From: a virus
Direction: 5' to 3' (one strand)
Length of the DNA stretch: 39,910 nucleotides
UHGV virus genome: UHGV-1354558
This document shows positions 31,440-31,484 of the stretch, piece by piece. Below the pieces are notes generated by a model. It was given only the letters and a program-made list of their open reading frames with translations. It made no database searches and was not told the origin of the DNA. Both the position numbers and the translations under genes were made by a program. Positions within the stretch are counted from its first letter, which is position 1; each line of letters opens with the position of its first letter.

Positions 31440-31484
31440 CGCTCTTTAACAGTCATGGTCCTCATTCCCGCCGAAATGCGGGAA
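31440..31484 (+). promoter_or_regulatory. nutR (boxA CGCTCTTTAACA plus boxB hairpin)
   Basis: boxA at 31440-31451 and hairpin TTCCCGC-cgaaat-GCGGGAA at 31465-31484, just after the cro stop. Confidence 0.65.

Follow-up and report, generated by a model that had tools for sequence, protein, structure and literature searches.

nutL and nutR of an HK620-type lambdoid immunity region: a boxB hairpin with a GNRA-like loop that co-segregates with the arginine-rich motif of N

Organization of the early regulatory region

The window, by which we mean the whole stretch of 39,910 nt of the virus genome UHGV-1354558 that was analysed, contains what its genes identify as a lambdoid immunity region, which megablast assigned to the HK620 immunity type. 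The features of this region are compiled in Table 1. The predicted membrane protein encoded between cI and pL occupies the position of a rexB- or sieB-type exclusion gene. Antisense to the 3' end of cII (31786–31818, minus strand) there is a strong intrinsic-terminator-like hairpin followed by a U-tract, which is where lambda has the terminator of its OOP antisense RNA. Weak Rfam matches to ctRNA and sX13 are explained by this terminator-like hairpin, and an Rfam 15 scan of 28500–32500 (E ≤ 10) returned chance matches only, with no nut or boxB family among them.

Table 1. Coordinates of features in the early regulatory region of the window
Feature	Coordinates	Strand	Evidence
N antiterminator gene, 99 aa, starts MTVVITYLADDNARNRRRARRQAQREQ	29025..29324	-	ORF; weak Pfam N_peptide; lambda N alignment; phage 21 identity
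ARM codons, residues 11-27 (DNARNRRRARRQAQREQ)	29244..29294	-	ORF translation, ARM comparison
nutL boxB hairpin UCCCGC-C[GAAA]U-GCGGGA, 6 bp	29769..29786	-	Sequence match, folding, covariation
nutL spacer TTGATGGGATTG	29787..29798	-	Resembles phage 21 nutL spacer TCGACGGACTC
nutL boxA (G-GCTCTTTAACA)	29799..29810	-	Identical in HK620, mEpX2, CUS-3, IME10, phage 21 (DE3)
pL early leftward promoter and OL operators	29849..29884	-	Promoter scan TTTACA-17-TATTCT at 29884..29856; HK620 pL maps here, offset +28669
Predicted membrane protein, 129 aa	30030-30419	-	Between cI and pL; homologue of HK620 hkaS; without Pfam match
cI-like repressor	30416-31132	-	HTH_3 and Peptidase_S24
pR early rightward promoter and OR operators	31181..31216	+	HK620 annotation, offset +28670
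cro	31239..31433	+	Pfam Cro E = 3.6e-26; HK620 annotation
nutR boxA (C-GCTCTTTAACA)	31440..31451	+	Sequence match
nutR spacer GTCATGGTCCTC	31452..31463	+	Resembles phage 21 nutR spacer GTTCTGGCCTT
nutR boxB hairpin AUUCCCGC-C[GAAA]U-GCGGGAAU, 8 bp; GNRA bases 31473-31476	31464..31485	+	Sequence match, folding, covariation
cII	31542..31820	+	Pfam Phage_CII E = 3.8e-42; first gene reached from pR beyond nutR and annotated tR1

The pair of nut sites as such is already known, having been annotated as putative in HK620 since 2001. GenBank AF335538 lists "nutL; putative N-utilization leftward" and "nutR; putative N-utilization rightward" together with pL, pR, the operators and tR1, and its nut features map to 31440–31485 (plus strand) for nutR and 29769–29810 (minus strand) for nutL, in agreement with the interval 31440–31484 that an earlier note on this DNA had given. 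At nutR, HK620 and mEpX2 match the window with 100% identity, bar one base further downstream, and across nutL the stretch from pL through boxA to boxB is identical in all three; the mEpX2 record annotates boxA elements only. The searchable literature contained no paper describing this boxB and no binding or antitermination experiment on this N–boxB pair, and a literal search of the literature with the boxB sequence retrieved nothing.

The two nut sites share boxA and boxB

The 18-mer TCCCGCCGAAATGCGGGA (TCCCGC-CGAAAT-GCGGGA) occurs in exactly two copies in the window, at 31466–31483 on the plus strand and 29769–29786 on the minus strand, where the chance expectation is 0 matches even with two mismatches tolerated. 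Each copy is preceded, shortly 5', by a boxA (consensus CGCTCTT(T)A) of the sequence GCTCTTTAACA, which we take to be rrn-like and which likewise has exactly two copies in the window, at 31441–31451 (plus strand) and 29799–29809 (minus strand), 12 nt from the shared 18-mer at nutL and 14 nt at nutR. By itself boxA is not significant, two or more matches at no more than one mismatch being found in 23 of 100 shuffles; what is significant is boxA and hairpin together, divergently oriented about the cI–cro region. The onset of nutL lies about 40 nt past pL, ahead of N, and that of nutR 7 nt past the cro stop codon, ahead of cII, and the ORF map, the promoter scan and the HK620 annotation concur in placing both sites in the promoter leaders, between pL and N and between cro and cII.

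In RNA folding the nutR site forms an 8-bp stem, AUUCCCGC/GCGGGAAU, at -12.5 kcal/mol (z = -4.5), and the nutL site a 6-bp stem at -10.5 kcal/mol (z = -2.4). The formal loop of both hairpins is the 6-nt CGAAAU, and this asymmetric loop reads identically in the sense of the transcript at nutL and nutR though the DNA copies are inverted. The earlier note had claimed an identical boxA and an identical hairpin with a CGAAAT loop at the two sites, which the two exact copies of each and the folding bear out; its further claim that the hairpins belong to nut sites is upheld by their position, by boxA, by spacers homologous to those of phage 21 and P22, and by the N gene that follows nutL.

A second hairpin, GCGCAT-aagttg-ATGCGC, is present at 31491–31508 (plus strand), 6 nt 3' of nutR boxB. 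The tR1 of the HK620 annotation, which directly follows nutR boxB, maps just 5' of it, and the same GCGCAT/ATGCGC stem with another loop also occurs 3' of P22 nutR. Its possible roles include those of a terminator element, of a boxC-like element and of an element related to pRE.

The N protein and its arginine-rich motif

The 99-residue ORF following nutL carries the arginine-rich motif (ARM) DNARNRRRARRQAQRE. Its match to Pfam N_peptide has an E-value of 5e-4 and 20.9 bits, under the gathering score of 27.9 bits, and over its C-terminal 38 residues it can be aligned with the lambda N of the antitermination complex PDB 6GOV (E = 1e-4). The protein is a mosaic in which residues 1–36 are of the HK620 type and residues 37–99 of the phage 21 type, the latter being 96.8% identical to the N of DE3/phage 21. 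The same combination of an HK620-type N-terminus and a phage 21-type C-terminus is found in CUS-3, IME10 and 611R6; the N of HK620 has a different C-terminal end, and that of mEpX2 a P22-like C-terminus. Whatever the remainder of N, the ARM core (S/D)DNA[RK]NRRR[AED][RK]R comes after every nutL of the HK620 type. The ARM of the window is not the same as that of lambda, P22 or phage 21, and N has no Trp at the equivalent of lambda Trp18. The motif is nevertheless close to the P22 ARM (GNAKTRRHERRRK in P22, DNARNRRRARRQA here), and P22 GNAKTRRHERRRKLAIE and window DNARNRRRARRQAQREQ can be aligned without gaps.

Covariation and loop variants of boxB

Relatives were collected from IMG/VR with three patterns and with a generic boxA plus hairpin detector, which gave 31 distinct HK620-type hairpins. 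Over these hairpins, 81% of the stem cells are paired in register as compared with 33–55% in slid registers; double changes (U-A to C-G and G-C to A-U) are found at four pairs, and the covariation score of the stem was matched in 0 of 500 shuffles. Near-invariance is seen at the fourth pair and at the two pairs that adjoin the loop; in divergent nutR sites the third pair is replaced by a 1x1 mismatch, which is itself conserved.

The loops found in relatives with the same ARM core (DNA[RK]NRRR) are CGAAAU in most cases, and CGCAAU, CGAGAU, AGAAAU, AGAGAU and AGUAAU. All HK620-type loops match [C/A]-G-N-R-A-U, with a GNRA sequence (GAAA, GCAA, GAGA or GUAA) in the four inner positions, in a small sample of about 10 distinct hairpins with a loop other than CGAAAU that was drawn with patterns fixing parts of the stem. 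One of the IMG/VR patterns also fixed loop positions 2, 5 and 6, and another left positions 2–6 free; the HK620-type matches to the latter still retain G, R, A and U. Phage L126 combines AGAGAU at nutL and CGCAAU at nutR with one N. In some relatives the first loop base is an A that can pair with the final U, giving a canonical tetraloop. That all loop variants fit X-GNRA-U argues for a conserved unit consisting of a GNRA tetraloop with C·U or A-U on its flanks, and the best reading of the boxB of the window is a GAAA tetraloop of the GNRA type that sits on a G-C clamp and has a conserved C·U mismatch (A-U in some relatives) as its closing pair. Folding, covariation and loop pattern together point to a short G+C-rich hairpin, maintained by selection, with a purine-rich, GNRA-like loop. 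GNRA is the fold imitated by the pentaloops of lambda and P22.

A group with the hairpin CACCGC-GAUGAU-GCGGUG after boxA, found in four IMG/VR loci (L130, L131, L136 and L150), was not counted as a loop variant of the family, on account of its different operators and spacers and the lack of an N-like ORF after it. In the four loci the arrangement is GCTCTTTAACA-N18-CACCGC-GAUGAU-GCGGUG, 3' of a pL-like promoter whose operators contain TTACC...GGTAA, and it may belong to another antitermination system or serve as the nut site of an N whose gene lies elsewhere. The loose pattern GCTCTTTAN{10,28}GCMGNRATGC, run over genome contigs, gave almost only chance matches from unrelated phyla, and these were left out of all counts.

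boxB and the ARM of N are exchanged together

In a comparison of CUS-3 with phage 21 (DE3 imm21), the cro–cI–pL segment is 80–98% identical, the C-terminus of N is 94–98% identical, and boxA and its flanks are identical, and it is boxB-L, boxB-R and the ARM of N that are exchanged together. The same association is found on a larger scale in IMG/VR. Among R/K-rich ORFs downstream of an HK620-type boxB, the NA[RK]NRRR core is present in 95 and a P22 or phage 21 core in 0, another 58 ORFs belonging to neither class and lying almost all after nutR sites (cII, for example). Downstream of the P22-type GACAA boxB, the NAK[TS]RRHE core is present in 96 of 117 ORFs and the HK620 core in 0, the other 21 being mostly P22-like variants. 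The type of boxB thus co-varies with the type of ARM both in the CUS-3/phage 21 swap and in the IMG/VR counts (95:0 and 0:96).

Because the ARM is unlike those of lambda, P22 and phage 21 and co-segregates perfectly with boxB, a separate N–boxB specificity class can soundly be inferred, and on these sequence comparisons the HK620-type pair appears well supported as such a class. The earlier note had come to a distinct specificity by way of the 6-nt loop and of a divergent ARM. The distinct class is well supported by co-segregation and the triple swap, but a loop of 6 nt is not uncommon and tells little, phage 21 having a hexaloop and the loop here a GNRA core; likewise, the ARM does differ from those of lambda, P22 and phage 21 but is not strongly divergent, being a near relative of the P22 motif.

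An inserted structured RNA between nutL and N

The leader between nutL and N spans about 440 nt in the window versus about 108 nt in HK620, and therefore any nutL-dependent control of N translation may differ. Much of the additional length is a 250-nt insertion relative to HK620, CUS-3 and mEpX2, at 29517–29766 (minus strand), directly 3' of nutL boxB and before N. Unrelated temperate phages whose hosts are Hafnia, Klebsiella, Edwardsiella, Providencia and E. coli carry this element with 70–90% conservation, always in the sense of the surrounding operon. It lies mostly upstream of various N-like genes in early-left leaders, and also in late operons after Q or lysis genes; an 18-nt core motif of the element is present in at least 120 IMG/VR contigs. 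RNAalifold applied to 8 homologues gave 45 pairs, 14 of them with compensatory changes, and one G-U pair is invariant, which marks the transcribed strand as the one that folds. In the window a strong Shine-Dalgarno sequence (29751–29746) is followed by a mini-ORF encoding MVH-stop (ATG-GTG-CAC-TAA, 29738–29727, minus strand), and a strong Shine-Dalgarno sequence with a start-stop mini-ORF of 1–4 codons precedes the structured RNA in nearly all members that retain the 5' anchor.

The element had no match in Rfam 15, the NCBI annotation at its position (PGAP for nearly all E. coli RefSeq genomes) shows nothing or "hypothetical protein", a literal search of the literature for the motif found no paper, and ARAGORN detected neither tRNA nor tmRNA in the nutL–N leader. 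It is a candidate for a new phage RNA family and merits separate study. In mEp213, the early-left operon has two unlike N genes, one HK620-type and one HK244-type, at 1144–1416 and 2569–2901 of locus L299, and the 250-nt structured element lies between them.

The 250-nt element sits exactly between boxB and a hairpin, CCAAAG-agtagttgg-CTTTGG, that is a conserved element of the leader; in the window this hairpin is found in the region 29503–29524 (minus strand), just 3' of the insertion, and in HK620-type phages it directly follows nutL boxB. P22 has an analogue after its nutL, CCAAAC-gagattgg-TTTGG. A second leader stretch of about 85 nt (29430–29516, minus strand) is missing in HK620 and mEpX2 and common to IME10, 611R6 and Gally. 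A 41-codon ORF (29446–29321, minus strand) overlaps the start codon of N through an ATGA at its end, and may be spurious or a coupling uORF.

Proposed mechanism and alternative explanations

We consider it very probable that the two sites serve as nutL and nutR in a lambdoid early module of the HK620 type, in which the ARM of N binds a GNRA boxB and antitermination follows. The transcripts from pL and pR would each carry boxA, the putative loading site of NusB/NusE, with the boxB hairpin coming 12–14 nt past it. The phage's own N would use its N-terminal arginine-rich helix (residues ~11–27, DNARNRRRARRQAQREQ) to bind the top of boxB, which we infer to fold as a tetraloop counterpart of the P22 nutR boxB minus the extruded cytosine, atop two invariant G-C pairs. 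The C-terminal two thirds of N, which share 97% identity with phage 21 N and are homologous to the end of lambda N that binds RNA polymerase, would then act with NusA and NusG to make RNA polymerase resistant to termination, and the modified polymerase would pass tR1 into cII–O–P and, leftward, the terminators beyond N.

That the hairpins do not bind N at all, and serve instead in termination, in processing by RNase III or, as DNA palindromes, in the binding of a repressor or other protein, is highly improbable. The 18-mer is an interrupted palindrome, tR1 of HK620 is annotated directly after nutR boxB, and the N leader of lambda contains RNase III sites; however, neither hairpin is followed by a U-tract or called by the terminator scan, the operators lie elsewhere, and the hairpin co-varies with the ARM of N and not with cI or cro. 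The compensatory changes in the stem and the asymmetric loop, kept in transcript sense at both inverted sites, fit an RNA element and not a DNA palindrome. A different doubt concerns the loop, which might be a true hexaloop, unstructured or with a U-turn, that is recognised in the fashion of phage 21 and does not adopt the GNRA fold. The C-terminus of N and the flanks of the nut sites are indeed of the phage 21 type, and the phage 21 loop, as described in PMC12550061, is likewise 6 nt long with C first and a non-canonical closing pair. We nonetheless regard such a loop as unlikely: every loop has G-N-R-A as its inner four bases and none has the UAAC of phage 21, the outer bases are a Watson-Crick A-U in some relatives, which leaves a canonical tetraloop, and the ARM is nearer to those of P22 and lambda than to that of phage 21, whose SRYKA core it lacks.

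The nut sites could also be real and their specificity not distinct, with HK620-type N and P22 gp24 forming one cross-reacting group for which the difference between tetraloop and pentaloop is neutral. The gapless alignment of the two ARMs, with N-A-[KR]-x-R-R-x-x-R-R in common, and the close similarity of the P22 nutR boxB, with little beyond an extra C and a C-to-U change to tell it apart, are in favour of such a group; the ARMs are near enough to each other that some cross-recognition may occur, and P22 N reportedly accepts many GNRA-like loops, some hexaloops included. Against it, natural segregation is perfect despite rampant mosaicism in the same region, and the His and Arg for which PMC12550061 reports contacts to the extruded cytosine are Arg and Gln in the HK620 type according to our own mapping, so that a shared specificity seems rather unlikely to us.

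The HK620-type nut sites offer nothing new on antitermination itself. The comparative data pin down the recognition element as a GNRA tetraloop that is closed by C·U or A-U above two G-C pairs, and the co-variation of this defined element with a specific ARM variant makes a simple, testable hypothesis of specificity. N–boxB pairs are textbook models of the recognition of RNA by arginine-rich peptides and common tethering tools, and to our knowledge only those of lambda, P22 and phage 21 have a solved structure. Tentatively, and as a possibility that we rate at somewhat less than even, the HK620-type pair may constitute a fourth functionally orthogonal class, with a true GNRA loop that has no extruded base, is closed by C·U or A-U and tolerates any GNRA sequence, and with an ARM that lacks the His/Arg grip of P22 on the extruded cytosine. 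If so, the HK620-type boxB would be a natural, 'ancestral-looking' form of what the lambda and P22 pentaloops imitate, and the pair a ready-made orthogonal peptide-RNA tethering system.

Comparison with HK620, lambda, phage 21 and P22

The closest relative is HK620 itself, with a nutR that is 100% identical over 141 nt, an identical boxA–spacer–boxB at nutL, 97% identity over N residues 1–64, and a shared cI/cro/cII module. The differences are the phage 21-type C-terminal end of N in the window and the roughly 335 extra nt between nutL and N, which include the 250-nt structured element.

The boxB of lambda has a GAAAA or GAAGA pentaloop whose fourth base is extruded and on which Trp18 stacks, and the lambda boxA is CGCTCTTA. 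As in lambda, the pL and pR leaders of the window are laid out in the order boxA–spacer–boxB, the RRRxRR core is present and the C-terminus of N is homologous (6GOV); the window differs in boxA (CGCTCTTA in lambda vs the rrn-like GCTCTTTAACA here) and in having no Trp in the ARM. A lambda-type boxB, that is, GAAAA or GAAGA with an ARM of the form ...RRRERRAEKQAQW and Trp18, does not describe a loop of formally 6 nt and an ARM without Trp.

The likeness to phage 21 extends over boxA, the flanks, the same genomic positions, similar spacers and a 97% identical C-terminus of N. In DE3 the phage 21 sites read GCTCTTTAACA-tcgacggactc-TCAAC-ctaacc-GTTGA at nutL and TGCTCTTTAACA-gttctggcct-TTCACCT-ctaacc-GGGTGA at nutR, and the peptide of the NMR complex PDB 1NYB matches residues 8–29 of the DE3/imm21 N. 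In that complex, according to PMC12550061, a C·C pair flanks a UAAC turn mimicking a GNRA tetraloop within the CUAACC hexaloop. Both loops are thus formally 6 nt, begin with C and place a non-canonical closing pair round a tetraloop-like core (C-[UAAC]-C in phage 21); the core, however, is UAAC there and GAAA (GNRA) here, the stems are unlike, and the ARM is DNARNRRRARRQ in the window and GTAKSRYKARRAE in phage 21. A phage 21-type boxB, with the CUAACC loop and an ARM of the form ...TAKSRYKARRAELIAERR, is accordingly not what the window contains, its loop being CGAAAU and its ARM different.

P22 has the nutR boxB ACCGC-C-GACAA-C-GCGGT, formally with the 7-nt loop C-GACAA-C. It shares with the window the CCGC/GCGG stem and a mismatched pyrimidine closing pair, so that CCGC-C-GAAA-U-GCGG here differs from it essentially by the loss of one C and by a C-to-U change. 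The ARMs are homologous, with N-A-K/R-x-R-R-x-x-R-R after a common MTV(V)ITY N-terminus, and divergent members of the HK620-type family share the P22 nutR spacer AATCTGAACCGC. The gp24–boxB complex PDB 1A4T has a GACAA pentaloop with its third base extruded, and PMC12550061 reports contacts of peptide residues His7 and Arg11 to the extruded cytosine. By our own mapping these residues would correspond to His21 and Arg25, and HK620-type N has Arg and Gln there, a replacement that fits co-evolution with the loss of the extruded base. The HK620 type differs further in having GAAA in place of GACAA, without the extruded cytosine, and in its closing pair, which is C·U or A-U as against C·C (nutR) or U-A (nutL) in P22, and the two types are unmixed in the IMG/VR tabulation. 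A P22-type boxB, GACAA with the ARM GNAKTRRHERRRK, is therefore not present in the window, which lacks the extruded C and has Arg in place of His, though stem and closing pair resemble P22 nutR. Taken together, the comparative data tie the HK620-type boxB to the P22 nutR boxB by descent and to the phage 21 boxB by architecture.
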